A stretch of 32,195 bases of DNA from a virus, in IMG/VR virus record IMGVR_UViG_3300045988_095223, one strand, 5' to 3'. Below, one piece after another: positions 1,434-28,638 of the stretch (position 1 is the stretch's first letter; every line of letters starts with the position of its first letter). The notes under the pieces were generated by a model. The model did not search any database. It was not told the origin of the DNA and worked only from the letters and a program-made list of their open reading frames with translations. A program made the translations under genes and the position numbers.

Positions 1434-1696
1434 TATCTAAACCTCCTTTTCTTTCTTGTTATTTCCTCTCTTTTTAATCTATCACATTCTTCTTTACTTT
1501 TTACTTTAACAAACATATCATTAGGTAAAGTACATCCATATTTCTTTATCTGATATTTTTCTATTTCTATTATCAATTCTTCTAAATATTTGAAATTTCC
1601 ATGTTCTTTTTTAAAATTCTTTCTAAATGTATCTCTATTTGGTAAACATTTATCTTTATACAAATTAAAGTAAAAATTCAATTTAAACTCTTCCAT
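1433..1696 (-). CDS. Hypothetical basic protein
   Basis: ORF track, 87 aa. Confidence 0.45.
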   Translation of the reverse strand: MEEFKLNFYFNLYKDKCLPNRDTFRKNFKKEHGNFKYLEELIIEIEKYQIKKYGCTLPNDMFVKVKSKEECDRLKREEITRKKRRFR

Positions 1697-2289
1697 TATT
1701 TCCCTCCTAATTCTTTATAATATTCCCAAATAAACCCACCTGCTGTTCTATTGTAATGTTTGCAGCAAAAAGTAATGTTGTTATGTAAAATGCCTAATTC
1801 TCTTTCAATATCCATCGTACTATTCCAAACCTTTATAACTTCACCATTTTTGTTTTTTTGAATAATTTTCTTTGATTTTCTTTTGCCATTATTACTGCTT
1901 GCTTTTCTCACATTCTCACATAATCCATTATCCCATGCATATCTAACATTTTGTTTTTGACTACACCATTCTAGATTTTCAATTCTATTATCATTTTTAA
2001 TTCCATTAATATGATTTATACAAGAATAGTTATTTGGATTAGGAATAAAGGCTTGTGCTATTATTCTGTGCAAAAATAAATTTTTTCTTATTCCATTTTT
2101 ATCTGTTAACTTTACATATTTATAGCCCAATTTATGTGTTCCTATTGATATATATTTATTAATTTCTTTTTCTTCTATCTCCTTTTTATTTATATTGTAT
2201 TTTTTGTTTTTTATTTTCTTTACATTACCTAAATTACTAATTTGATATAATCCTTCGTATCCTTTTATATCTTTCCATATTTCTTTCAT
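1696..2289 (-). CDS. Free-standing HNH homing endonuclease (NUMOD4-like N-terminus plus HNH_3-like core)
   Basis: WKDIKGYEGLYQISNLGNV at the N-terminus. HRIIAQAF...INHINGIKNDNRIENLEWCSQKQN forms an HNH core. Paralogous to the intron ORF at 4841..5389. Confidence 0.75.
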   Translation of the reverse strand: MKEIWKDIKGYEGLYQISNLGNVKKIKNKKYNINKKEIEEKEINKYISIGTHKLGYKYVKLTDKNGIRKNLFLHRIIAQAFIPNPNNYSCINHINGIKNDNRIENLEWCSQKQNVRYAWDNGLCENVRKASSNNGKRKSKKIIQKNKNGEVIKVWNSTMDIERELGILHNNITFCCKHYNRTAGGFIWEYYKELGGK

Positions 2290-4724: not shown

Positions 4725-5580
4725 CATTTGTATTCAACACAGGTCGTTAATCTGTGTTCGTTCTTTTACGAACTGCTTTATGTTTCCATAAAGATTAGAC
4801 TATATCATTATCCTTTTTCAAGGATACTCTCCATTTCCACTCACTTGAGTGTACTCCCTTTCGGGATAGTCGTTGAACCTTCATATTGTTTCCATATATA
4901 ACCATAAGCGGTTTTTCTTTTTCCTCTTATACATCTACCTATATTGCCACTGATATTTTTATCTTTGCCTAAATGTATCAATGCTTCCCTACAAGTATCG
5001 TATATTTTTATTAAATTGCCTTGTAAATCATATTGTGCTATTCCATATTTAACTTCGTTAGTTAAATTATTGTTTATTGCATGTATTCTATTTTCTTTAT
5101 GTGTTACCCACTCTAAATTATTTAATTTATTATTTTTTTTATTACCATCTATATGATTTATTTCTTCTTTTTGTTCTTGACTAGAAAAAGCCAGCATTAC
5201 TAATCTGTGAACTTTTGGACATTTATATAAAGAATTAGTTCCTCTTAAATCATAATATAAATATCCGCTACTATCAACCGATGGTTTCATAAATCTTTTT
5301 CTACATGGAGTGTATAATCTGCCATCATCATAAATAAAATATCCTTTGCAATTTTCAAATCCGTTTACTTCGCTTAATTCTTTTTTCATATTACCACCAA
5401 ATTAATTATACTACAATTGGCATAATTTGTCAACTTAGTGATGGAAACAATATGCTTGGTTGCTGATTGCCCATTGTACATACTTTAGATTTTTACACTT
5501 TGGTACTAAAGCCTTTAGGGTGTTCCAGCAATTAAAAGAGTTTTCTTATACTATTGCTAATATAAGGAGCAATTTTGTTT
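4725..5580 (-). mobile_element. Group I self-splicing intron (about 856 nt) in the endolysin gene, carrying an HNH homing endonuclease ORF
   Basis: Exon 1 ends in U (..GCG AGU|) and the intron ends in G (..CAAAUG|GAU). GCUC, 10 nt into the intron, can pair with exon GAGU to give the U.G wobble of P1. Conserved core strands are AACGACUAU (4874..4866) and GAUAUAGUCUAAUC (4806..4793), where GACUAU/AUAGUC forms a P7-like pairing. Confidence 0.85.
4841..5389 (-). CDS. Intron-encoded HNH homing endonuclease (HNH_3-like)
   Basis: HRLVMLAFSS...INHIDGNKKNNKLNNLEWVTHKENRIHA. It lies wholly inside the endolysin interruption, and its 3' end overlaps the ribozyme core strand AACGACUAU. Confidence 0.8.
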   Translation of the reverse strand: MKKELSEVNGFENCKGYFIYDDGRLYTPCRKRFMKPSVDSSGYLYYDLRGTNSLYKCPKVHRLVMLAFSSQEQKEEINHIDGNKKNNKLNNLEWVTHKENRIHAINNNLTNEVKYGIAQYDLQGNLIKIYDTCREALIHLGKDKNISGNIGRCIRGKRKTAYGYIWKQYEGSTTIPKGSTLK

Positions 5581-19294: not shown

Positions 19295-20671
19295 TTATAC
19301 CACTGGCGCTCTATCAGTTTCTTTAAACTCTATTATGATATACCTTAAGGCATCTATGTGGTCATCAAACTCTTTTACATAGGCTTCTTTACCACTTTTA
19401 GCACTTGCCTTTAAGTCATATCTATAACTTTCTAATTCAAGCATTCCATCATCTTTGCCACTATAAACTAATTCGCCACTATCAGTTATATGTTTAATTG
19501 CTTTTTGTTTATATATAAGCAGATATCCTTTATAGAACAAAGATTGCATATATTGAACTCCCTCAACTACATCATCTAAGCTTTTATTGATTAATGTATG
19601 TGATATATTATCAGCAATTAACCTGTTATGGAAATGAGCGGCAGCACTATCTAATACCATAGTGGTAATAGGCACTTGCCCATATTCACTTTTTAGATAC
19701 AATAAGAATAATCTTAGTTGCTTACTAAAATATTCGGTTGTAGGGTTATCTTGTTCTTCTTTAGCATTATGATAGTAATACTCTAACCTTATTAATACCC
19801 ATTTCTTATTTACTTTGTCATAAGCAAGAGCAATAGGTACAAAGGCAGTTGCATGAACTGAACCATAGTCTATACCTATTCCTATTTCTCTAAAAGCATA
19901 ATTATCAAGACTATCTATAACATTTATAATATTGAATACTCTACCAGTAGCAAGTATCCATCTATTAAATATCTTTTGTTCTCTTAGATTTCCAGGGGGG
20001 AACATTTCTAATACCTTTCGCATTGCTTCTTCTGTTTTTATTTTAGGATTATCATAAGGAAAAAACGAATAATGCTTAGCATAGGGCTTTTTATCTATGT
20101 AGTCAATCTTGTATGGGTGATTTTCTCCACCTTCAACATTGAATGAATGTATAGTCTTTAAATAAGGGTGGTCTGCGTAAGATACTTGTCTACCAGGGAA
20201 TTCATTGAATGGCTCTTGTAAATTATCTTGTGAGTATATTCTAGCACTTTCATCTATCCACTCAAATATCAAAGGTTTACCTAGTATCTTGTTAAATGCA
20301 AGCACATTATTAAAACCAAAGAAATAATATCTAATATTATATATTTCTAGATACTTTTCATCAGTCTGCCACCTTAATATATAATCTTTGCCTTTTGTTA
20401 GACCCATATCATCTAGAAACTTTTTTAAAGGTTCTAAGATGTTACCTTTTAATGTCTCTAAACTCCAACCAGTTATAGAACCAAAATAAGTTTCATTTGG
20501 ATTATAGTTATACAAGGCTTGTGCATATAATATACAACCTAAACATATATCAAAGGTCTTGCCGCTTTGCGTACTTCCTAATACATATATTTCAGTTAGA
20601 TTAGGGGTAAGTATATCATTTAGTAGTTGACTTTGCTTTTTTGATAGTGTTAGATTTAGACTTGTTTCCAT
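19295..20671 (-). CDS. terL: Terminase large subunit (PBSX/Terminase_3-like)
   Basis: Walker A VLGSTQSGKT near the N-terminus. 458 aa. C-terminal acidic nuclease-type residues (FDDHIDALRY). Confidence 0.8.
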   Translation of the reverse strand: METSLNLTLSKKQSQLLNDILTPNLTEIYVLGSTQSGKTFDICLGCILYAQALYNYNPNETYFGSITGWSLETLKGNILEPLKKFLDDMGLTKGKDYILRWQTDEKYLEIYNIRYYFFGFNNVLAFNKILGKPLIFEWIDESARIYSQDNLQEPFNEFPGRQVSYADHPYLKTIHSFNVEGGENHPYKIDYIDKKPYAKHYSFFPYDNPKIKTEEAMRKVLEMFPPGNLREQKIFNRWILATGRVFNIINVIDSLDNYAFREIGIGIDYGSVHATAFVPIALAYDKVNKKWVLIRLEYYYHNAKEEQDNPTTEYFSKQLRLFLLYLKSEYGQVPITTMVLDSAAAHFHNRLIADNISHTLINKSLDDVVEGVQYMQSLFYKGYLLIYKQKAIKHITDSGELVYSGKDDGMLELESYRYDLKASAKSGKEAYVKEFDDHIDALRYIIIEFKETDRAPVV

Positions 20672-21575: not shown

Positions 21576-21598
21576 CTATATTACTTCTACAAAGTCTA
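21570..21598 (-). promoter_or_regulatory. Candidate promoter: TAGACT, 17 nt, TATAAT, at the 3' end of the DUF1064 gene
   Basis: Minus strand: TAGACTttgtagaagtaatatagTATAAT. It reads into the ORF-free region. Confidence 0.35.
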
Positions 21599-21974
21599 TA
21601 TCAGGATAATTTGCTAATAACATTTTTATTTTAAGCCTATATACCTTGTCTTTTGCTGTTATAGGGCTTTTAACATCCTCAACTATATATTTACCCTTTT
21701 CATTATCAAAATACTTAAAGTCGGCTTTATAATAGGTTTTAGGATATGTTTTGCCTTTATAATAAATTGTATCTAATAATAAGAACTTTGGTTGTAGTTC
21801 TAAATCTTTTATTATTCCTGCTCTTTCTAGTTGCTTTAAAGTGATATATCTAGATTTTTCTTTTTTACTATCAAACTTTATTCCATTATAGATAACCTTT
21901 TTATTATAATATTTATTATTATTGCATAATTTTCCATTTATAACATTAGTGTTCTTTATTATCATATAACACAC
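21576..21974 (-). CDS. DUF1064-family protein (PD-(D/E)XK-like nuclease fold)
   Basis: YNKKVIYNGIKFDSKKEKSRYITLKQLERAGIIKDLELQPKF...YKADFKY...IVEDVKS matches the DUF1064 pattern. The true start may be the ATG at 21965. Confidence 0.6.
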   Translation of the reverse strand: MCYMIIKNTNVINGKLCNNNKYYNKKVIYNGIKFDSKKEKSRYITLKQLERAGIIKDLELQPKFLLLDTIYYKGKTYPKTYYKADFKYFDNEKGKYIVEDVKSPITAKDKVYRLKIKMLLANYPDIDFVEVI

Positions 21975-22335
21975 TCTCTAATTTACTATTATCTACTACT
22001 TCCATTTTAATAGTAGGCATTACTCTCATTTCTCCTGTTGTTTCAACTTTATCAGTTTGTCCTAGATATTGTTTTCCTAGAAATATAGCCATTGTAGGAT
22101 TTTTTTCTGCTAATTTCCATTGAGTTCTACGAAGTGATATTTGACCTTTGCCTCTTTTTATCTTAAATACTTCCGAAAATGTAGTTCCATAAGTTTTCTT
22201 GCACCAACTATTTAAAGTATCATCTTCGACACCAAAGAAATCACATATTTCTAATAAAGTACATTGAAGTCCACATAAATTTTCAAATTGTTTCTTATCA
22301 ATTTTATCCTGTGCTGGTGTATCTCCTTTTACCAT
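21946..22335 (-). CDS. terS: Terminase small subunit (HTH type)
   Basis: FENLCGLQCTLLEICDFFGV..TLNSWCKKTYG..FSEV...KGKGQISLRRTQWKLAEKNPTMAIFLGKQYLGQTD matches a pattern recalled from Firmicute phage small terminases. Confidence 0.6.
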   Translation of the reverse strand: MVKGDTPAQDKIDKKQFENLCGLQCTLLEICDFFGVEDDTLNSWCKKTYGTTFSEVFKIKRGKGQISLRRTQWKLAEKNPTMAIFLGKQYLGQTDKVETTGEMRVMPTIKMEVVDNSKLESVLYDNKEH

Positions 22336-22355: not shown

Positions 22356-23156
22356 TTAATATAATCCCCATTCTGCAAACTTTTCAAAGCCGCCAATTTT
22401 ATTTATGTAATTTCTTGCTATTTCTACTATTTCTGCATAAGGTTTGCCATCAATAGTATTATCTCCAATAGCACAACATAATTCTACTACTTTACCTGTT
22501 TCTTGTGCTTTTAAGAAAGCATAGATATTTACTGATACATCGGCTTTAGATAAATCTTTACCGTGAAGCCCTCCTCCAGTAACACTTTGTGCCATATCAG
22601 AGCCTAACTTTCTGTTGGTTGCCCCACTATCTACATCAGTACCACCAGTCCAGTCGCCTAATGGATTTACTATTACTTTATCTACAAACCCATTATACAT
22701 CTCTTGTAGTTCCTCGGTTTTAGCATTACTTTGGCATATTATGAATTTATCATCTGTTAATATGTACTTTCCATCACAATGATATTTATTATATATGTTT
22801 CTTGCTTCTATACTAATTGTCTTTTCGTTTTCAGTTAAAGGAACACCTTTAAATATTCCATTATCGCCGCATCTTATTTCTTTACTTTGATTTTCTGCTA
22901 AGTGTTTATCTTGTTTTACTATTTTTATATTCCATTTCCAATTATCGATTTTGGTTATTCTCTTGGCAATATCTCTTATTTCTTTTTTAGAATAATTAAC
23001 ACTTGTTTCTATAATAACACTACAATTATTATGTCCTATAAGTACCTCAACTGCTACTTTAGGATTTTCTTCTTTTGTATAAGCAAGGTCAACTATTGCT
23101 CCTGCTATTCTATCAGCCACTTTATCTGGATGGCTAGGGTTTACTTTTTCTATCAT
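22356..23156 (-). CDS. metK: Miniature S-adenosylmethionine synthetase (MetK-like, 266 aa)
   Basis: SHPDKVADRIAGAIVD parallels GHPDKIADQISDAVLD. GDNGIFKG parallels GDQGLMFGYA. NPLGDWTGGTDVDSGATNRKLGSDMAQSVTGGGLHGKDLSKADVS parallels [46 protein letters not shown]. Confidence 0.75.
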   Translation of the reverse strand: MIEKVNPSHPDKVADRIAGAIVDLAYTKEENPKVAVEVLIGHNNCSVIIETSVNYSKKEIRDIAKRITKIDNWKWNIKIVKQDKHLAENQSKEIRCGDNGIFKGVPLTENEKTISIEARNIYNKYHCDGKYILTDDKFIICQSNAKTEELQEMYNGFVDKVIVNPLGDWTGGTDVDSGATNRKLGSDMAQSVTGGGLHGKDLSKADVSVNIYAFLKAQETGKVVELCCAIGDNTIDGKPYAEIVEIARNYINKIGGFEKFAEWGLY

Positions 23157-23158
23157 TT

Positions 23159-24655
23159 TTATTCTCCTTTATTTAACAATACAGCCTTTTCTCCTGTAAA
23201 ATTTTCCCATCTTTGTATTATTACATCGACCCATTTTGGTTCTAACTCCATTAAGTATGATTTTCTGTTCAATTGTTCACAAGCAATTAATGTTGAACCT
23301 GAGCCGCCAAATACATCAAGGACTATTTCTTTTTCTCTACTGCTTGATTTTATTGCTCTACTACATAATGCTATTGGCTTTGGTGTTGCGTGTCCACCAG
23401 CACTTTTTCTTTCTTCTCCGCTTGTTGTATTAAAATGCCACACATTATTTTGATTGTCGTGGGTATTGTCAAAATATGCTCTTAGTCGGTCATACTCTGT
23501 TCTTAGTTGGTCATACGATTTTTTAAACGCTTCAACATTGTGTTCTTTGGCCCAATTTTGAAATTTAATATAAACATCTTCGGTTGGTAAATTCCACTGA
23601 CTTTTGCTTGTCCAGTGGTCTCTCGATTTATCACTATGTCCAGCAATCATTTTCATTGTTGGAATATCCCAACCACATTTTTTTCTTTCACTTAACAAAT
23701 ATGTTCTAATCGGCTCATATTCTTCCCAATACATATCGCTGTTTAATGTTAAACACTGAATGCCTTTTACGACAAATAAACACTTTTCATCGGCAATAGG
23801 ATACATTTTAAAATTGCTACTTAATTGTCCTTGTCCGTTTCCTTTATCCCAAGTTAATAAATTTCTAAAAGTAATTTTATTTTGTTTTATCATCGGCTTT
23901 AAAATGTTACTGTAAATATCCATTAATGGTTCATCAATGCCCCAACAATACCAACTTCCGTTGTCTTTAGAATAATCTAATGTTAACGGTATCCATTTTT
24001 TATTAAATTCTAATAAATCATCATAATTTAGATTGTCATTTAATACCCCATCTTTTTCTTTTTTCATTCCATAAGGTGGGTCAGTAAATACCATATCTGC
24101 TTTATTACCGTCCATTAGTTTTTCAACATCTTCTTCACTTGTACTATCTCCACACATTAATCTATGGTTTCCTAATTGGTATATATCTCCTAATTTTGCT
24201 TTAGGTTCTTCAGGTGGTTCAATGTCAAAGTCGTCTTCTATAACTTCTTGTTCTTCTTCAACTTGAAATATGTCATCTAATTCATCAACTTCAAACCCTG
24301 TTAATTCTAAATCAAAGTCGAGTTCTTTTAAGTTTTCTAATTCAATTTTTAAAAGTTCTTCATCCCATCCAGCATTTAAAGCCATTTTATTATCAGCTAT
24401 TATGTATGCTTTCTTTTGTGCCTCGGTTAAGCCCTGTAAAATAATACAAGGTACTTCTTCCATTTTTAATTTCTTGCTTGCTAATAATCTTCCATGTCCT
24501 GCTATTATGTTGTCTTTTTCATCAATTAAAAGTGGATTAGTAAAGCCGAACTCATTTATACTTGCGACTATTTGATTTACTTGCTCTTCGCTATGAGTTC
24601 TCGAGTTGTTTATGTATGGTATTAATTCATCAACTTTCTTATAAACTATTTCCAT
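23159..24655 (-). CDS. ParB-like N-terminal domain fused to a beta-class DNA methyltransferase (N6A/N4C family, DPPY type)
   Basis: The N-terminus IIAGHGRLLASKKL is ParB/sulfiredoxin-like. Motif IV is FTDPPYG and C-terminal motif I is VLDVFGGSGSTLIACEQL. Confidence 0.8.
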   Translation of the reverse strand: MEIVYKKVDELIPYINNSRTHSEEQVNQIVASINEFGFTNPLLIDEKDNIIAGHGRLLASKKLKMEEVPCIILQGLTEAQKKAYIIADNKMALNAGWDEELLKIELENLKELDFDLELTGFEVDELDDIFQVEEEQEVIEDDFDIEPPEEPKAKLGDIYQLGNHRLMCGDSTSEEDVEKLMDGNKADMVFTDPPYGMKKEKDGVLNDNLNYDDLLEFNKKWIPLTLDYSKDNGSWYCWGIDEPLMDIYSNILKPMIKQNKITFRNLLTWDKGNGQGQLSSNFKMYPIADEKCLFVVKGIQCLTLNSDMYWEEYEPIRTYLLSERKKCGWDIPTMKMIAGHSDKSRDHWTSKSQWNLPTEDVYIKFQNWAKEHNVEAFKKSYDQLRTEYDRLRAYFDNTHDNQNNVWHFNTTSGEERKSAGGHATPKPIALCSRAIKSSSREKEIVLDVFGGSGSTLIACEQLNRKSYLMELEPKWVDVIIQRWENFTGEKAVLLNKGE

Positions 24656-27925: not shown

Positions 27926-28129
27926 TTACCATTTATAAGTCCACATTAGATATAATACATAAATTAATATTGTTGCTAAAACCAATAGATTGACTATAAT
28001 TAAATATGCTTTTATATCTTCTTGTTTATTCTTTTTTAATATTCTTAATTGTTCTCTTTCTGTCTTACTTGTAGGAAATTCTTTTTTTAATTTCCACATT
28101 TGATATTTGCTTATTTTTTCTGGTTTCAT
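27926..28129 (-). CDS. Small membrane protein (C-terminal TM)
   Basis: ORF track, 67 aa, with LIIVNLLVLATILIYVLYLMW. Confidence 0.4.
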   Translation of the reverse strand: MKPEKISKYQMWKLKKEFPTSKTEREQLRILKKNKQEDIKAYLIIVNLLVLATILIYVLYLMWTYKW

Positions 28130-28638
28130 TTAATCCTCCTAAAATCTTTGCAGGCCTCTGTATTTTTTGTTATTCTTATTTTTCTATATCTACAATAATA
28201 TGTCGGTATCGTATTTCCTTTTATTTGCCTTTTTTCTAATAATCTGCAATTTTTACATCTATCTTTTATTTCTTTTTTCTCTTCTGATATTATAATTTTT
28301 TCTCTAAGGCTATTTTTTTTATCATATTTAAGTGTTTTCATTAACTCGGTAATACTTGTTATGTTTTCTTTTTTAATTAAATATGACCTACAAAATTGTT
28401 TTATTTGGTCTCTTAATGAAATATCTTTACCATTATCTAATGCTCGATGACATTTAATACACAACATAGCCCCATTCTCTTTGCAACCTTTTCCACCATG
28501 TGCTCTTGATAAGAATATATGTGCTATTTGTAATGCTCCATTATTTCCACAAAAGACACACCTATTATTATCTCTTTTTTTTATATATTTTCTTGTTTCT
28601 TTATCAAACTCACACCATTGACTTCTTATACTCATCAT
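28126..28638 (-). CDS. HNH endonuclease-domain protein with a Cys-rich C-terminal extension
   Basis: CVFCG...IAHIFLSRAHGGKGCKENGAMLCIKCHRALD, then CKNC...CRY...C. Confidence 0.6.
   Translation of the reverse strand: MMSIRSQWCEFDKETRKYIKKRDNNRCVFCGNNGALQIAHIFLSRAHGGKGCKENGAMLCIKCHRALDNGKDISLRDQIKQFCRSYLIKKENITSITELMKTLKYDKKNSLREKIIISEEKKEIKDRCKNCRLLEKRQIKGNTIPTYYCRYRKIRITKNTEACKDFRRIK

Follow-up and report, generated by a model that had tools for sequence, protein, structure and literature searches.

Can a phage carry, beside a DNA methyltransferase gene, its own enzyme for making the methyl donor, and can that enzyme function at a length of only 266 amino acids? The question is raised by the virus record IMGVR_UViG_3300045988_095223 of the IMG/VR database, a stretch of 32,195 nucleotides that was analysed as a whole and is called the window here. 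On its minus strand, the open reading frame (ORF) 22356..23156 encodes a homologue of methionine adenosyltransferase (MAT), the S-adenosylmethionine (SAM) synthetase MetK, and the product, named mini-MetK in this paper, combines the full set of catalytic residues with a trimmed three-lobed fold. Its neighbour is an orphan DNA methyltransferase. An earlier note on this DNA, made from the letters alone, had proposed that the two genes form a module of genome modification and cofactor supply beside the packaging genes. Evidence from sequence, profiles, structure prediction and comparative context supports that proposal, and we regard it as probable that mini-MetK is an active minimal SAM synthetase, expressed together with the phage methyltransferase and securing the cofactor for DNA modification.

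The signature blocks of MetK can all be read in the protein: HPDKVAD at residues 9-15, GDNG at 97-100, GGTDVDSGATNRK at 171-183 and GGGLHGKDLSKAD at 194-206. Every residue that the earlier note named in these blocks is present, but its spacing was inexact, with three residues and not four following GG and ten rather than six separating RK from GGG. The Pfam model of the N-terminal MetK domain, S-AdoMet_synt_N (PF00438), matches at 47.6 bits against a cut-off of 33.1 (E 2.5e-12). Mini-MetK belongs to the viral protein family phrog_1569, described there as of unknown function, which it matches over its full length (E 3.7e-71, 241 bits, residues 1-265 to profile positions 4-336 of 346). When the family profile was compared with the PDB, only MetK/MAT chains were found, with E-values from 6e-22 to about 1e-14 over profile positions 2-240; the best sequence match in the PDB is the MAT of Ureaplasma (6RJS). 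A direct profile alignment to Escherichia coli MetK by hhalign gave a probability of 96%. The resemblance between mini-MetK and MetK is far beyond chance.

The active site was compared by aligning mini-MetK to E. coli MetK, in the mature numbering of the latter. The equivalent pairs are H9 and H14, D11 and D16, K12 and K17, E37 and E42, E50 and E55, Q82 and Q98, D98 and D118, and D176 and D238, followed by R182/K183 and R244/K245, the glycines 194-196 and the P-loop, K200 and K265, D201 and D266, K204 and K269, and D206 and D271. In MetK, E42 forms the K+ site, Q98 binds methionine and F230 stacks on the adenine; the last of these is replaced by an invariant tryptophan, W169 in mini-MetK. K130, in an invariant DGK motif, is probably the equivalent of K165, an assignment that depends on the alignment. 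The listed catalytic and ligand residues are identical to those of MetK, and across the family they are invariant or at least 90% conserved: this was seen in an alignment of 25 sequences whose mean column identity is only 40%, and the catalytic residues are also invariant in family alignments of 35 and 105 members. Among 40 full-length representatives of clusters at 50% identity, about 30 keep the whole catalytic set.

The structure was predicted with AlphaFold2 as a monomer, from an alignment of 105 diverse family members gathered by profile search, and the model has a mean predicted local distance difference test score (pLDDT) of 85.9 and a predicted template modelling score (pTM) of 0.87. 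Three units of beta-alpha-beta-beta-alpha-beta type can be distinguished, at residues 2-81, 100-163 and, in reduced form, 205-263; the gating-loop segment (82-99) and the active-site loops (171-205) connect them and are the least confident parts of the model. In a Foldseek comparison with the PDB, the top 50 matches are all MetK/MAT structures (E 2e-14 to 1e-12, TM-score normalised to the query 0.65-0.76), and the aligned region takes in about 340-360 of some 380 target columns, the pseudo-threefold arrangement of three lobes included. Since the match to MetK runs from end to end, all three lobes are kept, each of them trimmed, and no domain has been lost. Mini-MetK had been described as far shorter than canonical MetK, and with 266 residues against 384 in E. 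coli about 120 are indeed gone; the further claim that large parts of the fold are missing holds in that number, but the loss falls on the periphery of all three lobes. The residues that bind ATP and methionine, the lack of which would have counted against the earlier proposal, are present: the alignment shows all catalytic and ligand residues retained. A first model, built from a shallow alignment of 35 sequences at 79-91% identity (pLDDT 67, pTM 0.45, Foldseek TM-score to MetK about 0.25), was dropped in favour of the one described. A structural search of BFVD with mini-MetK gave no significant match, and PADLOC has no model for the protein.

The family to which mini-MetK belongs is large and uniform. 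At least 8000 clusters were found at 90% identity, with the members listed being about 262-272 amino acids long, and clustering at 50% gives 207 matching clusters at E<1e-30 and 1437 at E<1e-3. The clusters number thousands in prophages of the gut, the rumen and clinical isolates, and prophage copies at 65-74% identity occur in Bacillota, in Bacteroidota (Prevotella, Bacteroides, Alistipes and Phocaeicola), in Gardnerella and in a metagenome-assembled genome (MAG) of Treponema. No homologue was found among the plasmids of PLSDB. The usual annotation of phage copies is hypothetical protein; in one case, Gardnerella phage vB_Gva_AB1, it is S-adenosylmethionine synthetase. Mini-MetK is under purifying selection: compared with ten homologues, it has a ratio of nonsynonymous to synonymous substitution rates (dN/dS) of 0.09-0.30, dS being close to saturation. 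Among loci chosen by their similarity to mini-MetK, it is more conserved than the partner methyltransferase in 94 of 95. A pseudogene or a fragment of a full-length metK was considered as well and was rejected because family members are uniform in length, the termini are intact and this ratio is low.

Several unusual members of the family were encountered. One representative of 582 amino acids (P0122) has an intein-like insert of about 330 residues exactly inside the P-loop, where the host sequence GGGL|HGKD becomes GGGL-[CLSGDSEY...FEVESHNLVIRHNNKIFITGN]-CGKD; Pfam called no intein in this insert, and it is identified from its splice-junction motifs only. Inteins are typically found at functionally critical sites, and for this reason the location is counted in favour of a catalytic role. 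Two long variants of 398 and 415 residues (P0186 and P0205) have an insertion of about 100 residues after the first beta-hairpin, intact catalytic motifs and a Cys-rich C-terminal tail (ending in CDSCKN and CKNCKT). In another sequence of 417 residues (P0248), an N-terminal C5 cytosine methylase domain precedes a stretch of about 83 final residues that is 87% identical to the C-terminus of mini-MetK, and this could be a real fusion or an artefact of frameshift or assembly. A few copies lie outside obvious prophage contexts. In a rumen MAG assigned to 'Bacillales' (L086:4001-4798), the family gene stands between mutL and the gene of ribosomal protein L21 (rplU), and in a Clostridia MAG (L108:4001-4792) it is directly upstream of hrcA; HrcA follows the family gene in three loci altogether, which by ORF size are probably L108, L111 and L128. 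In reduced genomes, mini-MetK might be a candidate cellular SAM synthetase.

The gene next to mini-MetK, at 23159..24655 on the minus strand, encodes an orphan DNA methyltransferase of 498 amino acids, in which a ParB-like N-terminal domain is joined to a beta-class N6/N4 methyltransferase. The earlier note had recognised this architecture, and its coordinates are exact. The methyltransferase (METHYLTRANSFERASE) matches Pfam N6_N4_Mtase (PF01555) at 117.2 bits against a cut-off of 26.7 (E 1.3e-33), and its motifs follow the beta-class order, with motif IV (DPPY) at residue 192 and motif I (FGGSG) at residue 449. It matches phrog_498, annotated as DNA methyltransferase, at E 7.9e-138, and PADLOC calls it a Type II methyltransferase (E 1.6e-91). 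The nearest NCBIfam models are the adenine-specific YhdJ and CcrM types, with scores below threshold, and the enzyme probably forms N6-methyladenine. The ParB-like domain occupies about residues 1-165 (24161..24655, minus strand), with GHGR at residue 53. Several ParB-like PHROG families match this region, the best being phrog_620 at E 7.6e-61 over residues 1-164; Pfam ParB_N (PF02195) scores 25.2 bits at residues 19-78, just below its cut-off of 26.3 (E 1.7e-5), and is given in the precomputed Pfam annotation of an identical protein.

The description of this gene as an orphan also stands. No cognate restriction endonuclease was found among the larger ORFs of the window, those below 90 amino acids being only partly scanned, and the only nucleases among the larger ORFs are of the HNH type or are the recombination exonuclease. 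The methyltransferase gene is surrounded by small phage ORFs, mini-MetK and a terminase gene. Because no endonuclease gene lies beside it, the enzyme is an orphan and not part of a Type II restriction-modification system, and a reading as a defence system was rejected on the same ground. By itself it is an ordinary example of the common phage orphan methylases with a ParB domain (phrog_498).

At the junction of the two genes, the methyltransferase ends with TAA (23161..23159), two bases AA follow (23157-23158), and the ATG of mini-MetK is at 23156..23154; the start two nucleotides past the stop had been given correctly. A Shine-Dalgarno-like sequence, AAAGGAGAA, was read directly at the junction in the last three sense codons of the methyltransferase (23162..23170, minus strand), and its GGAG core lies 7 nt before the ATG of mini-MetK. 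The gap of two nucleotides and the internal ribosome-binding site fit the translational coupling that had been claimed, which can be called no more than probable; all genes of this phage lie equally close together on one strand.

The neighbourhood of mini-MetK was compared in 160 related loci, namely the 80 best viral loci and 80 loci from species-representative genomes. A ParB and/or methyltransferase homologue on the same strand directly adjoins mini-MetK in 52 of the 80 viral loci (29 upstream, 23 downstream) and lies within 1.5 kb in 10 more; among the 80 genome loci, ParB or methyltransferase genes adjoin it directly in 42. In the genome loci, Terminase_4 is found upstream in 34 of 71, ParB_N downstream in 30 of 64 and N6_N4_Mtase downstream in 28 of 64, and the typical block runs from the gene of the small terminase subunit (terS) through mini-MetK to the ParB-methyltransferase. 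The clade of the window has the reverse order, methyltransferase, mini-MetK and terS, which is also seen in loci L007, L016, L021 and L074. As the order in most relatives is the opposite of that in the window, it is the adjacency that is conserved and not this particular junction.

Other genes that use SAM or modify DNA appear where the ParB-methyltransferase is absent. Among these loci, two (L049 and L121) have a C5 cytosine methylase as neighbour. Radical-SAM proteins, with weak scores and a CxxxCxxC motif, are encoded directly upstream of mini-MetK in three loci (L012:3985-5004, L039:3267-4265 and L087:1089-2393), and in two others it stands beside DUF1848 (E 2.8e-88), behind which come two stand-alone ParB-like genes (L059:4160-7264 and L073:3788-6883). 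The DUF1848 and radical-SAM loci look like uncharacterised SAM-dependent modules of phage DNA modification. Additionally, a TET-associated glycosyltransferase (PF20691, 2.8e-38), an N6/N4 methylase that lacks the ParB domain and pyridoxal phosphate (PLP)-dependent enzymes of the PALP family flank mini-MetK at L015:2928-6350 and L011:785-1660, a neighbourhood that suggests a DNA hypermodification cassette. At least 6 architectures can be distinguished; their common denominator is SAM-dependent DNA modification, and most of the 160 loci have a SAM-using neighbour of this kind.

This variety of partners also bears on the chemistry. Mini-MetK could be an active adenosyltransferase of altered chemistry or regulation, making a SAM analogue or using another substrate for hypermodification, or acting as a product-insensitive, unregulated source of SAM, directed against depletion or limitation of SAM by the host more than at the needs of the methyltransferase. 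The relatives beside the TET-associated glycosyltransferase, PLP-dependent enzymes, radical-SAM proteins or DUF1848 point in this direction, as does the replacement of the stacking residue F230 by an invariant tryptophan; moreover, the trimming of the lobes would remove surface elements that serve tetramerisation and regulation in canonical MetKs. However, the residues that bind methionine and the triphosphate are canonical (E50/E55, Q82/Q98 and D176/D238, together with K200, K204 and D206), the partner found most often is a plain N6/N4 methyltransferase, for which normal SAM is the cofactor, and no known SAM-depleting defence gene was identified in the window. We therefore consider altered chemistry unlikely.

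Under the reading preferred here, that of an active minimal SAM synthetase serving DNA modification, a phage of temperate or siphovirus-like type, with a genome of about 32 kb, would co-transcribe mini-MetK with the orphan ParB-like, beta-class DNA adenine methyltransferase just upstream of its terminase genes, and the two would probably be coupled in translation. In the infected cell, mini-MetK would make SAM from ATP and methionine, probably as a homodimer whose active site lies between the subunits, as in all MetKs. The SAM-consuming modification of phage DNA would then become independent of host SAM homeostasis, and the methyltransferase could fully modify newly replicated genomes before they are packaged, which may shield them against restriction when the next host is infected.

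Several points weigh against this reading. The Pfam models of the central (PF02772) and C-terminal (PF02773) MetK domains do not match mini-MetK at E<=0.01, so that the three-domain architecture is not recovered by Pfam, although both regions are still detectable by profile search and structure comparison. Against the MetK equivalog model TIGR01034, mini-MetK scores 46.5 bits (E 2.4e-12, best stretch residues 3-69), far from the cut-off of 309.4. The roughly 120 absent residues include strands of the C-terminal lobe, and the active-site loops at residues 171-205, which form the interface, have a pLDDT of only about 58-63; low confidence at 82-99 and 171-205 would be expected for elements that become ordered only at a ligand-bound dimer interface. 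Furthermore, five divergent representatives at 35-47% identity (P0132, P0177, P0195, P0223 and P0267) are without much of the catalytic set, several of H9, D11, D98, D176, R182/K183 and the GGG loop having been lost among them. Their length, the fold-defining positions and the C-terminal motif GGFEKLAEWGL are kept, and they are possibly pseudo-enzymes that serve another function. Because this minority of relatives has lost catalytic residues, it must be accepted that the scaffold can persist without catalysis.

These divergent relatives lend some substance to the idea that mini-MetK itself acts without catalysis or against the host, by binding SAM, ATP or methionine or by forming hetero-oligomers with host MetK, and so sequesters SAM or stops its synthesis in the host and disables SAM-dependent defences such as Type I restriction-modification and BREX. 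MetK and SAM are known phage targets (PMC8406200; bioRxiv 10.1101/2023.02.27.530186), and as two subunits contribute to each MetK active site, host dimers might in principle be poisoned by a truncated one. Yet all catalytic residues are invariant in the clade of the window, which mere binding would not need, and an identity of 65-74% across host phyla argues against a fit to the surface of one host MetK. Depletion of SAM would also starve the adjacent methyltransferase and the linked radical-SAM partners. A non-catalytic role of mini-MetK in the window is thus judged quite improbable.

The genomic context has counterpoints of its own. No recognisable SAM-using neighbour is present in 13-35% of loci, and inheritance among related prophages, not independent origin, could account for much of the synteny, as it surely does for part of it; the neighbour counts are raw counts, with no background frequency of methyltransferases near terS set beside them. 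It could accordingly be argued that the linkage is coincidental, both genes being independent accessory ('moron') genes at an insertion hot spot next to the terminase genes, with mini-MetK serving the host as a gene of lysogenic conversion or an auxiliary metabolic gene. The canonical-like MetK of prophage 12/111phiA affects aggregation and biofilm formation of its host (PMC8223999), 'SAM synthetase' is among the most abundant phage genes in digester viromes, with its role undetermined (PMC13644194, 2026), and the few family members with cellular-looking neighbours (mutL and rplU on the two sides, or hrcA downstream) agree with such a life outside a modification module. On the other side, neighbouring SAM-using enzymes are found again and again, in both gene orders and from four or more unrelated classes, which a random hot spot would not give. 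Mini-MetK also lies inside a tight lytic-cycle operon, with its two-nucleotide gap and shared Shine-Dalgarno arrangement, which is atypical of an autonomous moron, and around it there is neither a minus-strand terminator-like site nor an excess of promoter-like matches. Coincidence is for us a very unlikely explanation.

Two more considerations must be set against an active synthetase in the service of DNA modification. By a rough estimate, the SAM needed for about 100 methylated copies of a 32-kb genome is less than the normal cellular pool, and because the methyl demand of such a genome looks modest, it is not obvious why selection should favour a synthetase of the phage's own. Moreover, no biochemical or structural report on the family of about 265 amino acids was found in the literature searched, which mostly did not extend to subscription journals.

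A wider proposal can be put forward only tentatively, and we lean slightly to the side of doubt. The family of about 265 amino acids may be the smallest functional scaffold of a SAM synthetase, about 30% below any characterised MAT, and a general, mobile accessory of cofactor supply for SAM-dependent DNA modification by phages, whether the partner is an N6/N4 or C5 methyltransferase, a radical-SAM protein or DUF1848. It would possibly work in a physical complex with its partner, freeing phage genome modification from the host's control of SAM or from defences that limit SAM, and may have been adopted as a cellular gene in some reduced-genome Bacillota.

The window as a whole is a tightly organised phage genome; it measures about 32 kb at a G+C content of about 28%, and practically all of its genes lie on the minus strand. 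Genes of replication and recombination (a DnaD-like loader, Erf and an exonuclease) are followed by small ORFs, the ParB-methyltransferase, mini-MetK and terS, and then by the DUF1064 gene, the gene of the large terminase subunit (terL), and the portal, head, tape measure, tail and endolysin genes. The terS-like gene (21946..22335, minus strand) begins 20 nt after the stop of mini-MetK and matches two small-terminase families (phrog_309 at 2.8e-9 and phrog_606 at 6.7e-7), which agrees with its earlier identification as the gene after the pair. Between terS and terL lies a gene resembling Holliday-junction resolvases (21576..21974, minus strand; Pfam DUF1064 3.7e-21, phrog_190 6e-36), which shares 29 nt with the 3' end of terS and is separated from terL by about 900 nt of small ORFs. 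With the terL gene (19295..20671, minus strand; phrog_2 terL 1.5e-17) the packaging and morphogenesis genes begin; those for portal, minor head, tape measure and endolysin lie further downstream. The phage also has three HNH endonuclease genes, again in minus orientation (28126..28638, 4841..5389 and 1696..2289). Two of these lie close to the lysis genes; each matches phrog_59/phrog_959, and the pair resembles paralogous insertions of the homing type on either side of the endolysin region.

No minus-strand terminator-like sites were found between 19 and 28 kb of the window, and promoter-like matches around the locus were at the level of shuffled sequence, an uninformative outcome. With no such terminator and promoters at shuffle level, the genes are most simply read as one long transcript. 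A megablast search of the INPHARED phage collection found no close sequenced relative of the 7-kb region.

The implications reach beyond this phage. Attack on the SAM pool by phages is known from the SAM lyase of T3, and the opposite, a private supply of SAM for self-methylation, is barely mentioned in the literature searched. If active, mini-MetK would define a minimal catalytic core of a universally essential enzyme, of use to enzymology and to biocatalysis with SAM analogues. It would likewise be a simple genomic marker of phage DNA-modification cassettes, including the uncharacterised radical-SAM and DUF1848 ones, and would make it testable whether the availability of SAM limits anti-restriction methylation by phages.

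Among known systems, the opposite strategy to that proposed for mini-MetK is represented by the T3 SAM lyase (SAMase). Both would be phage proteins acting on the SAM economy of the host, and the aim of T3 is evasion of restriction and BREX; however, the lyase destroys SAM, inhibits MetK and has an unrelated fold. It polymerises with MetK, and phages are known to target both MetK and SAM (PMC8406200; bioRxiv 10.1101/2023.02.27.530186). In the parts of a 2025 restriction-modification review reached by a term search (PMC12707154), which cover the destruction of SAM by T3 and include 'Manipulation of cofactor pools', neither SAM synthetase (or synthase) nor MetK appears as a phage-encoded function.

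The methyltransferase of the window has close counterparts in the orphan ParB-domain methyltransferases of phages (phrog_498), such as Phi1207.3 orf32, Javan105_0034 and ORF20 of Gardnerella phage vB_Gva_AB1. The architecture of a ParB-like N-terminus and PF01555 is the same, and both lie beside terminase genes without a cognate endonuclease. The window enzyme differs by a somewhat longer target-recognition insert (498 against about 410 amino acids in total), and its order relative to mini-MetK is reversed.

Streptococcal prophages provide the nearest parallel for a phage-encoded MetK. The proteins of Phi1207.3 (orf29, 353 amino acids), 12/111phiA and phi-SsuNJ5/phiNJ3 (345 amino acids) are encoded in the same region as mini-MetK: the replication genes precede them, a ParB-domain DNA methylase lies nearby and terS follows downstream. 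Orf29 has all three Pfam MetK domains and was proposed to supply methyl groups to phage methylases (PMC4260502), and in Streptococcus agalactiae, deletion or complementation of the 12/111phiA gene alters aggregation and biofilm (PMC8223999). A streptococcal prophage MetK with a '135-aa truncation' in the same study was considered as a member of the mini family and dropped, the 12/111phiA sequence in its supplement being of the canonical-like type. In contrast to mini-MetK, the near-full-length streptococcal proteins (345-353 amino acids) form a separate lineage, with about 26% identity to the window protein over 79% of the length. A different MetK at the same genomic position indicates analogous displacement, which is counted in favour of a SAM supply for DNA modification.

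Canonical MetK/MAT, finally, as represented by E. coli MetK, TIGR01034 and the structures 1FUG, 7LL3 and 7LOO, has the same catalytic and ligand residues and the same three-lobed fold as mini-MetK. The blocks HPDK, GDxG, D-x-G-x-T-x-RK and the P-loop GGGxxGKDxSKxD are common to both, as are the equivalents of E42, E55 and Q98, and the gating-loop segment is of similar length. Mini-MetK differs in having 266 instead of about 380 amino acids, in being carried by phages and in being detected only by the N-terminal Pfam model. It represents an abundant, uncharacterised and miniaturised lineage of a known enzyme family in a conserved functional neighbourhood.

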